A stretch of 34,786 nucleotides of DNA from a virus. Position 1 is the first letter of the stretch. Each line of letters starts with the position of its first letter. Where the stretch lies: IMG/VR virus record IMGVR_UViG_3300045988_092324, positions 1-34,786 of that record; one strand, written 5' to 3'. The translations under genes and the position numbers were made by a program. This document shows, in pieces, positions 1 to 34,786 of this stretch. The notes under the pieces were generated by a model, which made no database searches, was not told where the DNA came from, and worked only from the letters and a program-made list of their open reading frames with translations.

Positions 1-77
1 TGAACGAGTGAATAGTTCCATCCCTCGGCAGTCCCGCTGCGGTCGAGCGACGGGTCGCGGCCTTGGGATACAGAATC
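1..77. repeat. Left copy of the 77-bp terminal inverted repeat
   Basis: Read directly: 1-77 is the exact reverse complement of 34710-34786 (77/77). Identity breaks at position 78 versus 34709. Confidence 0.97.
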
Positions 78-942
78 ACCATTCCATGGCCGTGCTGTAC
101 GTATCGCTCGCCCTTGCCACGACCGTTCGAAATGACTGCAGGTAGTGGCTCATGGCAGTGTTGACCGTGCTGTGTCCCAACGCCACGGCAATGTCCTCGA
201 TGGCGGCTCCGTGCTCAAGCGAGATGGTCGCCCACGAGTGGCGCAGGCATGTCATGGGCACATGCGGCAAGTCAAAGCGGCGGCAGAAAGCGCGGAATCG
301 GCGAGCGACGGTATTCGGGTCGAGCAGACACAAACGCCCAGACCTACGCGCCCCACGTATCGCACGCAGACGTTCCAACGCAAATCGCGGCAGCTTGAGC
401 CGCCTGTCGCTGAGCTTCGTCTTGCACCCCGTCTCGACCATCTTGCCGCCGACAACGTGGAGTCCGCGCTGCACATGCACCCAGCCGCTGCGCCAGTCCA
501 CATCCTCGATTCTCACCGCACACGCCTCGCAGCGCCGCAGGCCGAGCGCGGCACCCAAGAGCACAGCGGCCTCGAATGGTTGTCCGACTATCGCCTTAAG
601 CGTCACGCGCTCTTGCTCAGCCGTGAGCGTCGGTCGGCGCACCGTGGGCTTTTTCGGCAGCTCAACCCCTTGCGTTACGTCCCAGATTCTGAGCTGATGG
701 CGGCGCAATACCCATCGGTAAATCTGGCGGAAGGTCTTGTAGGCCTTTTCCGCCGCGCCGGGAAGGTCGATTCCGTCCACCCAATCTTGTACCTGCTCGA
801 ATGTGATCGTCTCTACCTCACGCTCACCCCACTGCGGCATCAGGTGGCAGCGGATGGCGCTGCGGTAGCCCTCCAGAGTGGTTGCGCGGAGGCGCTTGCC
901 CTTGTCGGCCATGTACTCGGTTACGGCTTCTGAAAACAGCAT
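76..942 (-). CDS. Small tyrosine recombinase (XerC/D-like, 288 aa); candidate DNA invertase
   Basis: Catalytic-domain signature LGLRRCEA (Arg), GCKTK (Lys), LRHSWAT (His-x-x-Arg), LGHST (His), MSHYL (Tyr), with an N-terminal SAM-like core-binding region. The stop codon (76-78) overlaps the inverted repeat by 2 nt. Confidence 0.9.
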   Translation of the reverse strand: MLFSEAVTEYMADKGKRLRATTLEGYRSAIRCHLMPQWGEREVETITFEQVQDWVDGIDLPGAAEKAYKTFRQIYRWVLRRHQLRIWDVTQGVELPKKPTVRRPTLTAEQERVTLKAIVGQPFEAAVLLGAALGLRRCEACAVRIEDVDWRSGWVHVQRGLHVVGGKMVETGCKTKLSDRRLKLPRFALERLRAIRGARRSGRLCLLDPNTVARRFRAFCRRFDLPHVPMTCLRHSWATISLEHGAAIEDIAVALGHSTVNTAMSHYLQSFRTVVARASDTYSTAMEW

Positions 943-2950: not shown

Positions 2951-3139
2951 TATCCCTCGAATATCCCAAGTGGGCGCAAAACCCTAAGTACGGTCAGCTT
3001 ATTGCGGCACTGTCAGCGAGTTTTGCCTGATGGTCAGCATCAATAGCGAGCTGCGGCAAACTGTCTCAGTACTGCCACAACTAACAGTAGGGCTTCTACC
3101 TGCGGGTTTGCGGGGGATTATCCTAACTTGTCCCAAGTG
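2950..3139. other. Candidate attP region next to the integrase 3' end
   Basis: About 170 bp non-coding between the terminator and the int stop. Imperfect direct repeats TTATCC(N7-8)TCCCAAGTG occur at 2950-2972 and 3117-3139. GGTCAGC and TGCGGCA motifs are also repeated inside. The position is classic for attP. Confidence 0.4.
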
Positions 3140-4250
3140 CGTCGAAGACGGCGCGGACGACCTGCTCGGCGGTGGGGCGGATGTAGTGCCTGCCCGACAC
3201 GCCGGGGAGGGCGTGGCCCATCAGCATCTCTATGAGGTCCCACGGCAGGCGAAGCTCGACCTCCGCTATCGTACGCCACGAGTTGCGGAGGTTCGACCAC
3301 GGGATGTGCTCAATGCCGCGGGCGGCGCAGAGTTTCCGCCAGCGGTCGTTGCATATGCCCCGGTTCATGGGCAGCCCGTCGCCCCGGTCGCTCAGCCACT
3401 CGCGGCCCTCGGCGGCGCGGGCGGCCGCTATCTCGACGAGGCGGTCGGCGGCCTGTGGCAAGATCACGATGGTGCGGGCGGACTTGGCGGTCTTGAGGGC
3501 GCCCACCGGCTCGGTGCCGGACTGCTGCATTTGGCGGCAGATGTCGGCGGAGGCGAGGACGGTGCCGCTACGCTCCCAGCGCAGTACCTCCTCGGTGCGG
3601 ACGCCCAGCGACTCGCCCGAGCGGCAGGAGCCGAAGCACGCGAGGATGAACGCGGGCTCCAGGGGGTTGCCGCGCAGTGCGTCGAGGACGCCCAGGGCCT
3701 CGTCGAGGGTGTAGACGCGCTTTGAGCGCTCGCGGGTCTTGCGGGTGGGCATGGTGTACCTGACGCTGGCGGCGAACGGGTCGAGCGGCAGGCGGATGAA
3801 GGTCGAGACGCAGGCATAGACCTTGCGCAGGGTGAGCAGGGCGGTGTCGGCGGTGGCGGCGGGCAGCGTCAGCAGCCACCCCTGCAGCTCGACGGCGCGC
3901 AGCTGGTCGACGGGCGCCTGCCCCCAGCGGGGTCCGACGTAGTTCCTCCACGAGCGCAGTACGAGGTCGCGGGTGTTGGGGGCGAGCGTCCCCGCCTCGA
4001 CCTGTGCGGCCATCTTGGGGACGAGCCACGTCTCGTAGGCCTTGGCTATGGTGGGCACGGGGACGTCGTCGGCGTGCTCGACGTGGATGCGGTCGAGTTC
4101 CGCGCACGCCTCGCGGTAGGTGCCGTACACGGTCTTGGTCTTGCGCCTGCGGCCCTGCGGCGTGTTCTGCATCCAGCGCAGGACGTACTTCTTGCCGCGC
4201 CTCATCTCGGTCACGGAGCCCCAGACGCGGCGGCGCTGCTTCTTTGTCAT
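3123..4250 (-). CDS. int: Phage integrase (tyrosine recombinase, 375 aa)
   Basis: Basic N-terminal arm-type region (MTKKQRRRVWGSVTEMRRGKKYVLRW). Catalytic signature CRSGE (Arg), LKTAKS (Lys), LRNSWRT, MGHALPG (His), GRHY (Tyr). Confidence 0.92.
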   Translation of the reverse strand: MTKKQRRRVWGSVTEMRRGKKYVLRWMQNTPQGRRRKTKTVYGTYREACAELDRIHVEHADDVPVPTIAKAYETWLVPKMAAQVEAGTLAPNTRDLVLRSWRNYVGPRWGQAPVDQLRAVELQGWLLTLPAATADTALLTLRKVYACVSTFIRLPLDPFAASVRYTMPTRKTRERSKRVYTLDEALGVLDALRGNPLEPAFILACFGSCRSGESLGVRTEEVLRWERSGTVLASADICRQMQQSGTEPVGALKTAKSARTIVILPQAADRLVEIAAARAAEGREWLSDRGDGLPMNRGICNDRWRKLCAARGIEHIPWSNLRNSWRTIAEVELRLPWDLIEMLMGHALPGVSGRHYIRPTAEQVVRAVFDALGTS

Positions 4251-17874: not shown

Positions 17875-17881
17875 CCCGTTA

Positions 17882-17940
17882 CCCCCTTTTTACGCTCGTG
17901 GGCAAACGCACGCGCTTGTCCACGTGCGTAAAAAGGTGGG
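17882..17940. repeat. 59-bp imperfect palindrome upstream of terS
   Basis: Arms 17882-17908 and 17913-17940 pair over about 27 bp with 3 mismatches. TTTTTACGC pairs with GCGTAAAAA and CGTGG with CCACG. Confidence 0.8.
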
Positions 17941-17987
17941 AACGTTCGCGTTTCCATATGGCTATCTAGCAGCGGAAACGTGATTTT

Positions 17988-24721: not shown

Positions 24722-25717
24722 ATGCCCATCACACTCGAAGAGGCAAAGGTCGGCATGTCCGACCGCGTCGACCAGTCCGTGGTCGACACCTTCCAGCGCT
24801 CGTCCCTCCTGCTGGACAAGCTGACGTTCGACAACGCCATCTCGCCCGGCACCGGCGGCTCCACGCTGGCCTACGGCTACACGCAGCTCAAGACCCCGGC
24901 GACCGCCGGCGTCCGCGCCATCAACGTCGAGTACACGGCGAACGAGGCCAAGCGCGAGAAGAAGACCACCAACGCCGTCATCATGGGCGGTGCCTTCCAG
25001 GTCGACCGCGTCCTGCAGAACACCTCCGGCGCCGTGGACGAGCTGGCCTTCCAGCTGGAGCAGAAGATCAAGGCCGTGGCCAACGAGTTCCACTACCTCG
25101 TCATCAACGGCAAGGCGGCCGGCACCGCCGGCGCCGGCAAGCCCGACGGCACGTTCGACGGCCTCGCCAAGCTGCTCTCCGGCACGTCCAACGAAATCGC
25201 CTCCGCCGTCGACGTGTCCACCGCCGACCTCATGACCAAGAACGCCCAGGCGTTCCTCGACGAGGTCGACTACCTGCTCTCGCAGGTCGACGGCCCGAAC
25301 ATGCTGATGATGAACGGCAAGATGCTGACGAAGTTCCGCGGCATCGCCCGACGCGCCGGCTACTACGAGCGCACCAAGGACGACGCCGGCCGATACATCG
25401 AGACCTACAACGGCGTGCCCATCGTCGACCTCGGCAAGTACTACAACGGCACCACCGCCGTCGACGCCGTCGCCGACACCGCCGCCACGGCAGCCGCGCT
25501 CGGCAAGTCCGACATCTATGCCGTATCCCTCGGCCTCGACGGCTTCCACGGCATCTCGCCGACCGGCACCGGCGTGGTCCAGTCCTACATGCCCGACATG
25601 GCGCAGCCCGGCGCCGTCAAGACCGGCGAGGTCGAGCTCGTGGCCGGCGTGGCCCTCAAGAACACGCTCAAGGCCGGCGTCCTCAAGGGCATCGGCACCG
25701 CCCCGAAGCTGGGCTAA
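24722..25717 (+). CDS. Major capsid protein
   Basis: 331 aa directly after the scaffold gene. Balanced composition and high expression-type codon usage. Confidence 0.85.
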   Translation: MPITLEEAKVGMSDRVDQSVVDTFQRSSLLLDKLTFDNAISPGTGGSTLAYGYTQLKTPATAGVRAINVEYTANEAKREKKTTNAVIMGGAFQVDRVLQNTSGAVDELAFQLEQKIKAVANEFHYLVINGKAAGTAGAGKPDGTFDGLAKLLSGTSNEIASAVDVSTADLMTKNAQAFLDEVDYLLSQVDGPNMLMMNGKMLTKFRGIARRAGYYERTKDDAGRYIETYNGVPIVDLGKYYNGTTAVDAVADTAATAAALGKSDIYAVSLGLDGFHGISPTGTGVVQSYMPDMAQPGAVKTGEVELVAGVALKNTLKAGVLKGIGTAPKLG

Positions 25718-30376: not shown

Positions 30377-31184
30377 TATCGAATATGAATCGGGCATGGG
30401 GGCGGTCATCCCGCTCAATTCCGGCATCTACGTCGGCAGGCCGAACGACCTCTTCAGCCGCGAATGGGACTACAAGATCGGGTACCGCGCGCTGTCGACC
30501 GCATCGCGCGGCGCCCGCAAGGCCTCGTTCAGGGCGGTCTTCGCCGACATGGGGCTGGCCGACGAGTTCCGCCGCTGCGCGGACCTCGACGTCTCGGGCA
30601 ACACGCCCGGGACGCTGAGGGTCGGGGACTGGTTCCAGCGCTGCCTCGTCCTCGCGTCGAAGGTCGACGGGGTGCGGGACGGGCTCTTCACCGCGAAGAT
30701 CACCGTCGTGCTGCTCGACGGCCTGTGGCGCAGGGGCGTCACGACGGAGTTCGCGCCCGTCAACGGCTCGTCCGGGTACGAGTTCCTCGACCTGCCGCAT
30801 GATTTGCCGTACGACCTAGGCGTGACCCCACCGCTGCAATACGCCATCAACCCAGGCTACTCCGGCAGCCCCGCGAAGTTTGTCGTGTACGGGCCCGCGG
30901 TCAACCCTTCTGTGCGCCTGGCTGGCAATCTGTACCAGGTGGACGTGACCGTTCCCGAGGGCGGTTACATGGATATCGACCCATTGCGGCGCACCGTCAC
31001 CGTTGTCGCCGCAGACGGCACCACGATGGACGCCTTCGGCAAGGCGCACCGAGGCAGCGGGGCAGGCTCGGGAGAGTACATCTTCGAGCGCGTGCCGGCC
31101 GGCACCTGCGAGGTCTCGTGGGACAACAGCTTCGGCTTCGACCTGACGCTCTACGAGGAGGAGGGGGAGCCGGCATGGTCCTAG
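30369..31184 (+). CDS. Distal tail protein (Dit-like)
   Basis: ATG at 30369 overlaps the tape measure stop. 271 aa, in the canonical position. Confidence 0.7.
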
Positions 31185-33310
31185 TGGTGAGCGACCCGGC
31201 GGCCGGGGACGTCCGCGAGATCGAGGACTTCGAGCTCGACCTCGCGTTCGGCAGCGACGAGAACGCCCTGAAGCTCGAGGCGCGCGCCGGCGAGGCCCCC
31301 GCCGAGGGGCATCTCGTGTTCATCGACGGGACCGAGTACGGCGGCGTCGTCGACGAGGTCGCCTACGAGGCGGGCAGGGAGGCCTCCGGCACCGTCCTGT
31401 GCAAGGGCCGCACGTGGCACGGCATCCTGGCGGGCAAGCGCCTGCTCCCCGACTCGGGCAGCGGGTACCTCGCGGTGAGCGGCAAGGCGGGCGAGGTGCT
31501 CGCGTCCCTCATATCCCGCATGGGGCTGTCCGGGCTGTTCTCGGCAGCCGTGGACGATACGGCGGTCAGCTATACCTTCGACCGCTTCGCGGACGGGTAC
31601 GGCGGCCTGAAGGCCCTGGCGGAGGCGAACGGGCGCAAGGTCTCGATGCGCCGCCTAGGCGGCAAGGTCGAGCTATCGCTGCCCCCGGTCGTCGACTACG
31701 CGGACAAGGTCGACTCGGACCTGCTCGACTTCACGCTGACGAGCGTCCACCGCTGCGTCAACCATCTGGTGTGCGCCGGCACGGGCGAGCTCGAGAACCG
31801 CGCCGTGGTCCATTTCTACGCCGACGCGGCGGGCAACGTCAGCCACACCCAGAGCCTCTTCGGCGTCGACGAGATATGCGCGCTCTACGACTACAGCAAC
31901 GCCGACGAGGCGAAGCTCGAGGAGGAGGGCGGCAAGAAGCTCAGGGAGTACCAGACCCGGGGCAGCGTCGAGGTCGACGCGCACGAGGATATCGACGTCG
32001 ACGTCGGCGACATCATCTCGGCGCGCGACAACGCGCACGGCAGGACCGTCAGCGCGACCGTGGTGAAGAAGATCGTGCAGGTCTCGCGCGGCGTGGCAAC
32101 GTATAGGTATGAGGTCGGCAGCGAGACCACGACGAAGAACTCGTCCAGCGCGATCGCCGACGGAGGTGGCGGGCACGCTTACCTGGCGGGAAAGGGCCTG
32201 AAGCTCGAGAACTACACGTTTAGTGCGGAGGTCGACGCGGAATCGCTCAAGGCCGTTGAGGCCAAGGCCGACAAGGCCGTAACAGACGCCTCAAGCTCGC
32301 TCCAGACGTGGGCGCAGGCGGATATCGCCATGGGAGAAGTGTCAACGCTCACGGAAGGCTCTAAGGCCACCGCTTCGCTCTCAGGCGAAGGGCTGGTCAA
32401 GACACTCTCGCTCGGAATTCCACGCGGCGCGACCGGCATCCAGGGTCCGAGGGGCGAACGCGGGGCCACTGGTCCCCAAGGCCCGCAGGGAATCAAGGGT
32501 GACACCGGCGCGACAGGCTCGCAGGGACCTACGGGACCACAAGGCCCCAAGGGAGCCACTGGTCCGCAGGGTCCCAAGGGAGACACGGGCGAGCAGGGAC
32601 CGCAGGGCGTTCAGGGAAAGCAGGGGCCGCAGGGCATACAGGGCGAGACGGGGCCGCGCGGTCCGCAGGGATTGCAGGGCATCCAAGGTCCCAAGGGAGA
32701 CACGGGCGAGGGCTTCTCCATCTCGAAGGTATACGCGAGCTACGACGCGATGCGGGCGGGGTGGAAGACGGACGGCGTGAAGGTCGGCGGGTTCGCGGTC
32801 ATCGGCTCGAATGTCGAGGACCCGCACAACGCCGAGCTGTACGTGAAGTCGGCAGACGGCTACTCGCTGATCGCCGACATGAGCGGCGCGACCGGCGTCA
32901 AGGGCGAGCAGGGCCCCACGGGCCCGCAGGGCCCGGTCGGCGCGACCGGAGCGGCGGGGGCAACTGGGCCGCAAGGCCCGAAGGGAGCCACCGGCGCAAC
33001 CGGTCCGCAGGGCCCCAAGGGCGAGACGGGGGCAACCGGCGCGACCGGCGCGAAGGGCGCGACCGGCCCCACGGGGCCGCAGGGCGTGAAGGGCGAGCAG
33101 GGCGAACGCGGCCCGCAGGGTATACAGGGCCCGAAGGGCGAGAAGGGCGAGCGCGGCGACTCGGGCGTCACCGTACCGCTGTCGGGGTTCTTCTCGCTGA
33201 CGGTGGACGCCGACGGCAACCTCTGGTCGCACGTGGCGGACGGGGCGGCAGCCCCGCCGCTCTCATACGACTCGTCCACTGGCGAGCTTTACTATGAGAT
33301 AGGTGAATAA
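31175..33310 (+). CDS. Tail-tip/fibre protein: Sipho_Gp37-like N-terminus plus two collagen-like (G-X-Y) blocks
   Basis: ATG at 31175 after GAGGAGGAGGGGG. The N-terminus is [33 protein letters not shown] runs lie at 32426-32710 and 32885-33166. Confidence 0.8.
32426..32710 (+). repeat. Collagen-like G-X-Y triplet block 1 (95 triplets)
   Basis: Uninterrupted GGN-NNN-NNN periodicity ([28 protein letters not shown]...). Confidence 0.95.
32885..33166 (+). repeat. Collagen-like G-X-Y triplet block 2
   Basis: [34 protein letters not shown]...GERGDSG. Confidence 0.95.
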
Positions 33311-33312
33311 TC

Positions 33313-33999
33313 ATGGCGAGATATTTAGTGGGCAACATCAAGGGCCCCAAGGGTGACACCGGCGCGACAGGACCACAAGGGCCCGCCGGCGCGCGAGGGG
33401 CCACGGGAGCCACGGGCCCGCAGGGTCCGAAAGGCGACGCGGGCGCGACAGGACCGCAAGGGCCAACCGGCAAGCAGGGGCCGACAGGCCCCACTGGCCC
33501 CGCGGGCTCGCAAGGACCGCAGGGCATCCAGGGGCCTAAAGGTCCGACAGGCCCGCAGGGGCCGCGAGGCCCGCAGGGGCCGTCTGGCGGCGAAATCAAG
33601 GACACGCGCAACGACAACCAGCCGCCGAGCTGGTACATGAAGAACCACGCGAATGAGACTGTAGTCGAGTTCAAGAATGCCAAGGTCATCGGGCTTTCGA
33701 GCAGCGAGACCTATGCGACCCTCGTCACCTTCGTGCAATGGGGCGAAAGTTCCGGCGGGTACCCGAAGCAGGTCGCTATGAGCGGCGAAGACATATGGTG
33801 GCGGCGCGGCGGGTCGGACTCTTCGTGGACGGCGTGGCAGCACATCCTCGATATCCTCGACCCGAACACGATGTGGATCATAGCCCATCGTGTCGGCGAG
33901 TACTTGGAGACGGACGGCTCGTTTGACCCGAACAACATCGGCGGTACATGGGTGCGGGCACCGAGTATCGGGCCGCACACGTGGCTGAGAACTAGTTAA
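33313..33999 (+). CDS. Tail fibre with collagen-like stalk and globular C-terminal (receptor-binding-like) domain
   Basis: 228 aa. G-X-Y block at residues 11-94, then a Trp-rich globular domain ([30 protein letters not shown]). Confidence 0.8.
33343..33594 (+). repeat. Collagen-like G-X-Y triplet block 3 (84 residues)
   Basis: [34 protein letters not shown]...GPQGPSGGE. Confidence 0.95.
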
Positions 34000-34009
34000 A
34001 GGAGAGAAC

Positions 34010-34240
34010 ATGGCAAAGACAGAGAATTTCACCCACTACACCTGCGACCGATGCGGCGCTGACGCGTACCTCCAGCAAGGTGCTGCGGCGACTGGTGACT
34101 GGCGCGAGGTCGAGCGCTTCGACCAGTACGGCAGCAGGGCCACGCGCCTGCTGTGCAAGGGGTGCACGGACGCGTACAAGAAGCTCGCCGCCAAGCACGA
34201 CGGCGAGTTCCAGCAGTTCATGAGCAACGCGAAGGAGTAG
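34010..34240 (+). CDS. Small zinc-ribbon protein (76 aa) between fibre genes
   Basis: RBS AAAGGAGAG. Cys motifs are CDRCGA...CKGC. Confidence 0.65.
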   Translation: MAKTENFTHYTCDRCGADAYLQQGAAATGDWREVERFDQYGSRATRLLCKGCTDAYKKLAAKHDGEFQQFMSNAKE

Positions 34241-34244
34241 TAAC

Positions 34245-34786
34245 ATGGCATTTGAAATCGTGGACGGCATGACGGGGACCAAGCACATCAGCTCAGACGA
34301 CCTGTCGGCGCTGAACGTCGCGACCATCGGCAAAGCAAACTGCGTGCTGGAGTACGGTGACGACTTCAAGCTCACGATGGCGAGCGCGAACAGCGCGACG
34401 CTCGGCACCGGTGTAGGTATGGTCGGCGGCAAGAGATTTTGGAACCAGGCGGCAACCTCGCTGACGGTCCAGTCTGGTACGCAGGGCCAGAAGCGTAACG
34501 ACCTCGTCGTAGCCCGCTACGCGAAGACCAGCGCGGGCATCGAGAGCATCACGCCCGTCGTCGTCAAGGGCACGCCCAGCACGGGGACGGCGGCGGACCC
34601 CGCGACGACCTCCAACGACCTGAAGCTCTGGCGCATCCCGCTGAACGGCATCAGCGTCGGCACGCCCGTGAGGCTCTTCGACCCCGTGGCCTCGCTCGCG
34701 ACCCTCGGGGATTCTGTATCCCAAGGCCGCGACCCGTCGCTCGACCGCAGCGGGACTGCCGAGGGATGGAACTATTCACTCGTTCA
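34245..34786 (+). CDS. Fibre/tail-tip-like protein, 5' part only (open at the window end); the last 77 nt are the inverted repeat
   Basis: Not in the track because it has no stop. ATG at 34245 after GAAGGAG. 180 codons open to the window edge. Translation is MAFEIVDGMTGTKHISSDDLSALNVATIG...QKRNDLVVARY...GDSVSQGRDPSLDRSGTAEGWNYSLV. Confidence 0.75.
   Translation, partial: MAFEIVDGMTGTKHISSDDLSALNVATIGKANCVLEYGDDFKLTMASANSATLGTGVGMVGGKRFWNQAATSLTVQSGTQGQKRNDLVVARYAKTSAGIESITPVVVKGTPSTGTAADPATTSNDLKLWRIPLNGISVGTPVRLFDPVASLATLGDSVSQGRDPSLDRSGTAEGWNYSLV
34710..34786. repeat. Right copy of the 77-bp terminal inverted repeat
   Basis: Exact reverse complement of 1-77. Lies within the open fibre-like ORF. 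Confidence 0.97.

Follow-up and report, generated by a model that had tools for sequence, protein, structure and literature searches.

A probable Rin-type shufflon of tail receptor-binding protein cassettes behind the inverted ends of a temperate Collinsella siphovirus genome

The IMG/VR virus record IMGVR_UViG_3300045988_092324 is a stretch of 34,786 bp with a G+C content of 65.6%, referred to here over its full length as the window, and its two ends carry the parts of a predicted inversion system that exchanges the C-terminus of a tail receptor-binding protein. An open reading frame (ORF) at the right end starts with the ATG at 34245, preceded by an AAGGAG motif, and stays in frame to the last base, 34786; its constant N-terminal part is designated Rc. 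A recombinase gene, designated rin, lies on the minus strand at the left end, and each of the two genes meets the window edge through one copy of a terminal inverted repeat that divides into a short crossover site (rix) and the start of a cassette designated X. The same phage was located by exact-protein look-up in two other human-gut metagenome assemblies, ERZ19662500 (contigs L073 and L001) and ERZ27258677 (contigs L074 and L002), and several of the boundaries given here are drawn from these contigs.

34245..34709, plus strand: Rc, the constant N-terminal 155 codons ("shoulder") of the predicted receptor-binding tail protein, assigned from the ATG after AAGGAG and from conservation among homologues
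34710..34722, plus strand: Rc-proximal crossover site (rix) GATTCTGTATCCC, coding for D-S-V-S; L074 matches the window through 34722 and departs from 34723, while L073 stays identical
34723..34786, plus strand: first 64 nucleotides of cassette X, in frame with Rc (expressed position), identical to L073
1..64, minus strand: the same first 64 nucleotides of cassette X beside the recombinase flank (silent position), identical to L002 3016-3079
65..77, minus strand: rin-proximal crossover site (rix) GATTCTGTATCCC, which shares bases with the stop codon of rin; L001 departs into cassette D right after this 13-mer
76..942, minus strand: rin, a 288-residue XerC/D-like tyrosine recombinase and predicted invertase, assigned from Pfam and PDB sequence matches

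Direct comparison confirmed the description of the ends given in the initial annotation, namely that positions 1-77 are the exact reverse complement of 34710-34786, with identity ending at base 78, and that the right copy lies inside an ORF that meets no stop through 34786. A repeat search scores the terminal pair as 80 nucleotides at 99%, bases 79-80 agreeing by chance, and because the second-best inverted repeat in the window reaches only 41 nucleotides at 78%, chance is excluded as the source of the 77-mer. The right copy encodes the peptide DSVSQGRDPSLDRSGTAEGWNYSLV, and the left copy adjoins the 3' end of rin, whose TGA stop codon at 76-78 shares two bases with the repeat.

From these ends, the window had been read as the unique arc of a circular genome in which the constant tail-protein part, a repeat, missing invertible DNA, the inverted repeat and the recombinase follow one another, with the variable tips lying just outside it. 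Both the layout and the circular arc are borne out by the independent contigs of the same phage:

L073 (ERZ19662500): no mismatches to window 34010-34786, then X to its stop codon, B and C on the other strand, and the end of D
L001 (ERZ19662500): rin DNA 100% identical; departs from the window right after GATTCTGTATCCC into D, followed by C
L074 (ERZ27258677): matches the window through 34722, then continues into D
L002 (ERZ27258677): downstream of a 100% identical rin, X, B, C and the end of D

The tips lie where they had been placed, as L073 extends the right end of the window and L002 its left end, each with 0 mismatches, and the alternative junctions are found in L074 and L001, which show cassette D at the same two positions. 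The arrangement is thus Rc-X-B-C-D' together with rin-D-C in ERZ19662500, and Rc-D together with rin-X-B-C-D' in ERZ27258677. An 884-nucleotide block after the site has 0 mismatches between L073, where it stands behind Rc, and L002, where it stands behind rin, while cassette D is equal at 275 of 276 positions between L074 (behind Rc) and L001 (behind rin). Since the same blocks occur in opposite arrangements in the two samples, the whole segment has been inverted between them, with the breakpoint inside the 13-mer; in both assemblies one junction leads from the 13-mer into X (AAGGCC...) and the other into D (CGACAG...). These contigs establish the anatomy of the locus, its crossover site and an inversion between samples that breaks at that site.

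Two expectations of the initial annotation were not upheld by the same contigs. The true inverted repeat is not longer than 77 bp but is the 13-bp GATTCTGTATCCC, which is what the outer sites share in the two samples with one orientation assembled, and the remaining 64 nucleotides of the 77-mer are the start of cassette X. The segment is also not a pair of opposed ORFs that begin with a common 25-residue peptide encoded by the repeat; it contains four cassettes (X, B, C, and D), each behind ATTCYGTATCCC and with X and B placed tail to tail, that have only the (D/H)SVS codons in common. Their fusions with Rc measure 262, 251, 235, and 260 residues for X, B, C, and D, respectively, the cassettes themselves spanning ∼80-107 codons, and successive inversions between oppositely oriented sites would allow each of the four to reach Rc. 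The length of the segment, ∼1.17 kb, is an estimate only because the join between L073 and L001 is inexact: an exact join was tried and gave a 157-nucleotide overlap with 16 differing positions. This overlap, L073 5466-5623 against L001 5133-5289 at the boundary of C and D, is 89% identical over 157 nucleotides within one sample in which the rest of the phage is identical, and the difference represents cassette microdiversity or a second strain.

Within the window, ATTCYGTATCCC is restricted to 65-76 on the minus strand and 34711-34722 on the plus strand, against an expectation of 0.06 occurrences, and its codons read (D/H)-S-V-S. A copy with one mismatch, ATGCCGTATCCC, lies at 25518-25529 inside the major head protein gene and is probably due to chance. 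Among 24 related loci of the collection searched, the site is found nowhere but in the arrays that lie between rin and Rc, apart from one stray copy in L015; these arrays hold from 3 to 13 sites in both orientations, and the same motif stands ahead of every cassette in ∼70 related loci. A site internal to an array usually comes after the stop codon that ends the previous cassette, in the form TAG-CA-TTCCGTATCCC, and the same cassettes recur at differing positions and orientations across genomes, as with those starting QVPSFWGD and RVQFAQEG in L003, L005, L006, and L007. An attempt to place the strand-exchange point inside the 13-mer by means of the C/T polymorphism at site position 5 found a left-flank linkage that is inconsistent between phages.

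Several related loci depart from this common form. The largest array, in a Collinsella aerofaciens isolate (L014 10861-14700), comprises no fewer than 13 sites and cassettes, of which 12 stand in tandem and share one orientation. Two loci with an Rc that is 99% identical (L070 827-1640 and L071 542-1380) have neither a rin gene nor an array, and carry instead one fixed Rc::cassette gene, one more site and a decayed stub of 33 and 15 codons, respectively, before the holin and lysin; judged by their sequences, they look like "frozen" shufflons. In the IMG/VR contig L029 (1411-2347), a pair of Rc-type junctions (TCGGGGATTCCGTATCCC) point toward one another at a distance of ∼900 bp, as though one small array served two constant genes, though a misassembly could produce the same picture.

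The protein encoded by rin is composed of a SAM-like core-binding domain (Phage_int_SAM_3, residues 3-56; expectation value E 5.6e-10) and a catalytic domain (Phage_integrase, residues 125-270; E 2.5e-11), which leaves no room for an arm-binding domain. Its best PDB sequence matches are XerC-like 4a8e (E 8.5e-10), XerD 1a0p, and XerA, and it contains GLRRCE, LRHSWAT, LGHS, and SHY in the order expected for the Arg, Arg-His, His and Tyr residues of the active site, with Y267 as the predicted nucleophile. No serine-recombinase (resolvase) domain was found for 76-942, where Pfam and PHROGs return tyrosine-recombinase families only. Genes 88-94% identical to rin occur in 24 loci of the collection, each followed by a cassette array, and the equivalent gene of the Bifidobacterium phage PMBT6, annotated as "integrase," is 37% identical at the protein level (E 3e-36). 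Rin would be the catalyst of the inversion.

Homologues of Rc are numerous, with 2057 found in databases at E ≤ 1e-5. Among the best 120 of these, on which conservation and C-terminal diversity were judged, residues 1-159 or so are nearly invariant and no consensus extends beyond DSVS, directly after which at least 25 unrelated C-termini follow to give total lengths of 215-274 residues. Fusions of Rc with X are also present in the relatives P0001 and P0002, and the equivalent PMBT6 protein is 36% identical to Rc (E 3e-29). The N-terminal part matches PHROG families of unknown function or labeled "tail protein," and the source names of a few homologues read "receptor binding protein" or "tail fiber protein." A Pfam search with Rc and ten Rc::cassette fusions found no family, with one sub-threshold jelly-roll match in one cassette class, and a PDB sequence search with the Rc::X protein found no match.

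The fold was approached through an AlphaFold (AF2) model of P0002, a close Rc::X homologue. A first model, built on a shallow alignment of near-identical sequences, had a predicted local distance difference test score (pLDDT) of 46, and addition of the Bifidobacterium clade to the alignment raised the mean to 60.6. Within this model, the N-terminal domain (residues 40-145) reaches a pLDDT of ∼75-84, the linker that holds DSVS (residues 147-166) stays below 50, and a C-terminal β-sandwich follows. The best PDB match of the model by Foldseek is the receptor-binding protein of the lactococcal phage p2 (2bsd and 1zru; E 1.5e-4 to 2.8e-4, probability 1.0), with further matches to the 1358 receptor-binding protein and to SPP1 gp22 (template-modeling score TMt 0.57), while the better-resolved C-terminal domain of the first model matched the receptor-binding protein heads of p2 and TP901-1 (2bse and 4ios) at TMt 0.63-0.65. 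The model moderately favors a receptor-binding protein built of shoulder, linker and head modules, of which the shufflon would swap the head, the crossover site lying in the linker just before the head domain. The tips may change host range.

The exact 77-bp length of the terminal repeat may be accounted for by the way in which the window was assembled. In a de Bruijn graph, a contig ends at the first k-mer preceded by two different ones, and the branching 77-mer would begin at the first base common to the Rc flank (..GGGGA) and the rin flank (..GGTGA). Were X joined to Rc (the "on" position) and, inverted, to the rin flank in the same data set assembled at k = 77, the graph would for that reason have stopped at the shared 77-mer at both ends; the 77-mer would then be the 13-bp site plus 64 nucleotides of X and a repeat of no single molecule. 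Related contigs end exactly k bases past the start of the site for k = 55 (L006, L020, and L027), 77 (L035), 99 (L010), and 127 (L018, from a cultured isolate), or end at the last base of the site (L004, L016, L024, L054, and L058), and these two types of contig end are the branch points expected for mixed orientations. Both orientations are likely to have coexisted in the sample from which the window itself came. More generally, Rin-type loci systematically break short-read assemblies, and how exactly they do so, whether by inverted k-mers or by contig ends placed at the site, is itself evidence of mixed orientations.

The window is very probably a temperate Collinsella siphovirus genome in circular form, which assembly cut open at a Rin-type shufflon. 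The tail receptor-binding protein would be split into the constant Rc and interchangeable, promoterless C-terminal "head" cassettes, each starting with a 12-13-bp asymmetric site (ATTCYGTATCCC); Rin would recombine two inverted sites and flip the DNA between them, and whichever cassette came to abut Rc would be translated as the tip. Several points weigh against this account. If only the two whole-segment states were present, at equal depth, plain unitigs should end at the 13-mer and not 64 nucleotides into X; for both ends to extend into X, the junctions Rc-D and rin-D must have been pruned or missed, or the assembler must have used path extension. The cassette array lies outside the window and was reconstructed from other samples, in one of which L073 and L001 differ at 16 of 157 positions; strain mixtures thus exist and could mimic switching within a sample. 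Confidence in the structural model is modest (mean pLDDT 46-61), with a full-length Foldseek TM-score of ∼0.3, and catalysis by Rin and the recognition of different receptors by the tips are predictions.

Since a de Bruijn assembler yields the same unique arc for any inverted repeat of at least k bases, flipping or not, the repeat might truly be at least 77 bp long in one genome, with two cassettes of identical 5' parts, one by Rc and one by rin. A duplicated X of this kind would be a fixed terminal repeat that could support homologous recombination and would give no sign of mixed orientations, and it would simply explain a contig that runs 64 nucleotides into X at both ends. It is nevertheless improbable, because X is single-copy in both other samples with the same phage, where the opposite junction has D, because a related complete array (L048) contains X, B, C, and D once each, and because among 232 sites in ∼70 loci no pair of cassettes within one locus has similar starts (none reached 32 identical positions out of 40). 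Only marginally more credible, and still unlikely, is the view that the orientations are fixed strain variants, an old static inversion or a mixture of strains, that no longer switch. The comparison across samples shows that inversion at the site happened, not when, and this view can also draw on the two sequence variants of the C/D region in one sample (89% over 157 nucleotides) and on the rin-less relatives with a frozen tip, L070 and L071. Outside the segment, however, the samples are almost identical, with rin at 100% and the 884-nucleotide block free of mismatches in both orientations, so the inversion must be very recent. The rin gene is intact with its catalytic motifs present, a break at the site that bears the k-mer signature is also seen where cultured isolates were assembled (e.g., L018 at k = 127), and switching within a culture has been seen by read analysis in the homologous Bifidobacterium system (PMC6109161).

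A two-state segment of the Mu G, P1 C, or e14 P type, turned by a serine invertase (Gin, Cin, or Pin) between 26-34-bp inverted repeats, would share the functional layout of a constant fiber 5' part, invertible alternative 3' parts and an adjacent recombinase gene. The initial annotation had likened the locus to these segments, which stand as functional analogues but not as relatives: the adjacent recombinase is a tyrosine recombinase (Phage_integrase and SAM_3) with no resolvase domain, the site is 12-13 bp, asymmetric and present in four copies, and four cassettes allow multiple nested inversions. The domain content of the gene at 76-942 rules out a serine-invertase system, leaving that reading with next to no probability. 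No more can be granted to a pure assembly artefact, whether a fold-back, a chimeric read or a palindromic library product with no biology behind it, although assemblers use 77 as a standard value of k and the limits of the repeat coincide exactly with those of the contig. The initial annotation had named a direct joining of the two ends or a fold-back as what would undo its proposal; a fold-back or chimeric origin is ruled out by Rc-X in L073 and rin-X in L002, each of which has 0 mismatches and continues into real coding sequence. A linear genome with terminal inverted repeats was likewise considered and rejected.

Beyond the two ends, the window encodes a complete siphovirus gene set by Pfam and PHROG matches, including large terminase, portal, head morphogenesis, major head, major tail, tape measure, and RecT-like proteins. 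A holin-like ORF and an amidase endolysin occupy 1095-2802, and the tape-measure gene lies upstream of the fiber genes. The features that flank the switch are as follows:

3123..4250, minus strand: a separate phage integrase of 375 residues (phrog_1, E 1e-25; Pfam Phage_integrase)
31118..33999, plus strand: two collagen-repeat tail-fiber genes (31118-33310 and 33313-33999), with matches to Pfam Collagen (E 1e-30 and 8e-15), Sipho_Gp37 and PHROG tail-fiber families
34010..34240, plus strand: an ORF of 76 residues directly upstream of Rc (phrog_28750, E 1.5e-12)

The two collagen-like fiber genes are as the initial annotation had described them, save that the 76-residue ORF, which it did not mention, intervenes between them and Rc; an ORF of 76-78 residues occupies the equivalent place in L070-L074 and in PMBT6. 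Both fiber genes contain long Gly-X-Y collagen-like arrays (32420-33580) with many internal direct repeats in 9-bp phase, and these arrays are likely to differ in length between strains. Just upstream of the terminase region, a near-perfect palindrome at 17877-17944 has 33-nucleotide arms, 85% complementary, around a 2-nucleotide loop, and may serve as a terminator, as an operator or in packaging.

The phage is a temperate siphovirus of Collinsella (Coriobacteriia) with a circular genome of ∼35.8 kb, from which the window lacks ∼1.0 kb. Homology to an integrated prophage, L008, ends at about window position 3079, between the endolysin and the integrase, so that attP, as far as sequence comparison indicates, probably lies at ∼3079-3123; a transfer RNA scan intended to mark it found no such gene in the window. 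As the window crosses attP, it corresponds to the excised circle, which the assembler cut open at the repeat, and because a separate integrase of 375 residues is encoded next to the predicted attP, rin is not the phage integrase. The host is assigned to a Collinsella species because the relatives of rin that are 88-94% identical occur in 24 loci of which 23 are titled Collinsella; these include isolates and one complete chromosome, and the remaining locus is titled Olsenella uli.

Collinsella is a common human gut genus, and a temperate phage of this genus with a built-in four-tip switch, and with relatives that have many more tips, is relevant to phage host range, to the dynamics of phages and their hosts in the gut and to the engineering of phages with swappable tips. 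Whether Rin-type shufflons form a very large, actively switching family in the phages of human-gut Coriobacteriia is finely balanced, with even prospects either way; the suggestion arises because there are 2057 Rc homologues, at least 25 unrelated classes of head domain and arrays of up to 13 cassettes (in the Collinsella aerofaciens isolate), and it takes in the frozen rin-less derivatives and an exchange of cassettes between phages. If correct, these would be the largest receptor-binding-protein shufflons known, and the k-mer signature at contig ends could detect switching within samples from ordinary assemblies.

Compared with known systems, the predicted tail protein resembles the lactococcal receptor-binding proteins (p2 ORF18, TP901-1 ORF49, and the 1358 receptor-binding protein), whose heads are naturally interchangeable modules, in its modeled N-terminal shoulder, linker and C-terminal β-sandwich head, though sequence identity is only 10-15% and model confidence modest, and in the lactococcal phages the heads are exchanged by evolution with no built-in invertase. 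The Gin/G (Mu), Cin/C (P1), Pin/P (e14), and Min (p15B) systems also place a recombinase gene adjacent to a segment whose inversion swaps tail-fiber C-termini and host range, and Min is likewise multi-segment. Their enzymes are serine invertases that act with Fis-dependent enhancers at 26-bp sites with a 2-bp crossover, whereas the enzyme here is a tyrosine recombinase, and the mechanism is for that reason unrelated. Closer at the level of mechanism alone is the R64 (IncI1) shufflon with its recombinase Rci, which also combines a tyrosine recombinase, short asymmetric repeats (the sfx sites, of 19 bp) and nested inversions that choose one C-terminus; what it varies, however, is PilV, the adhesin at the tip of a conjugative pilus, and not a phage tail protein in a siphovirus genome.

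The closest counterpart is the Rin shufflon itself, all testable defining features of which were found here, and the serine recombinase that defines the Gin/Cin/Pin group was not. It was described in the Bifidobacterium prophages Bb423phi1, Bl157phi1, and Bl30698phi1 as consisting of rin, Rc, Rv cassettes and the 11-bp rix site TTCCCTAACCC, with inversion seen in reads (Mavrich et al., 2018; PMC6109161), and it is also present in clade 1 prophages of Eggerthella lenta, with the 8-bp repeat ttccgtat (PMC8778435). Shared with these systems are a XerD-like tyrosine invertase beside the array and separate from the integrase, a constant gene Rc for the N-terminus of the receptor-binding protein followed by several dissimilar promoterless Rv cassettes, and a position between the tail and lysis genes. 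The sites are short, asymmetric and nearly equal, TTCCCTAACCC or ttccgtat there and TTCYGTATCCC here, the present site including the E. lenta octamer with a single C/T variant. The present locus differs in its host genus, in its site variant (TTCTGTATCCC) and in its four cassettes, with X and B tail to tail. The isolated Bifidobacterium phage PMBT6, reached by a protein search of phage GenBank in which a DNA search with the right end of the window gave no match, has the same layout, a site TTCCGTAACCC and an Rc-like gene that ends in DSVT, and its site TAGCTTTCCGTAACCC has one copy in one orientation and three in the opposite one. It serves here as the Bifidobacterium representative, although it lies outside the prophages of the 2018 paper and its equivalence to the published Rin system is drawn from layout and site. 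A search of the literature library found no paper linking Collinsella with a shufflon. Both architecture and mechanism having been published for Bifidobacterium and Eggerthella prophages, the switch is real but of a kind already described, and what the present locus adds to this known system is a new host genus and clean evidence of natural inversion, with no new mechanism.

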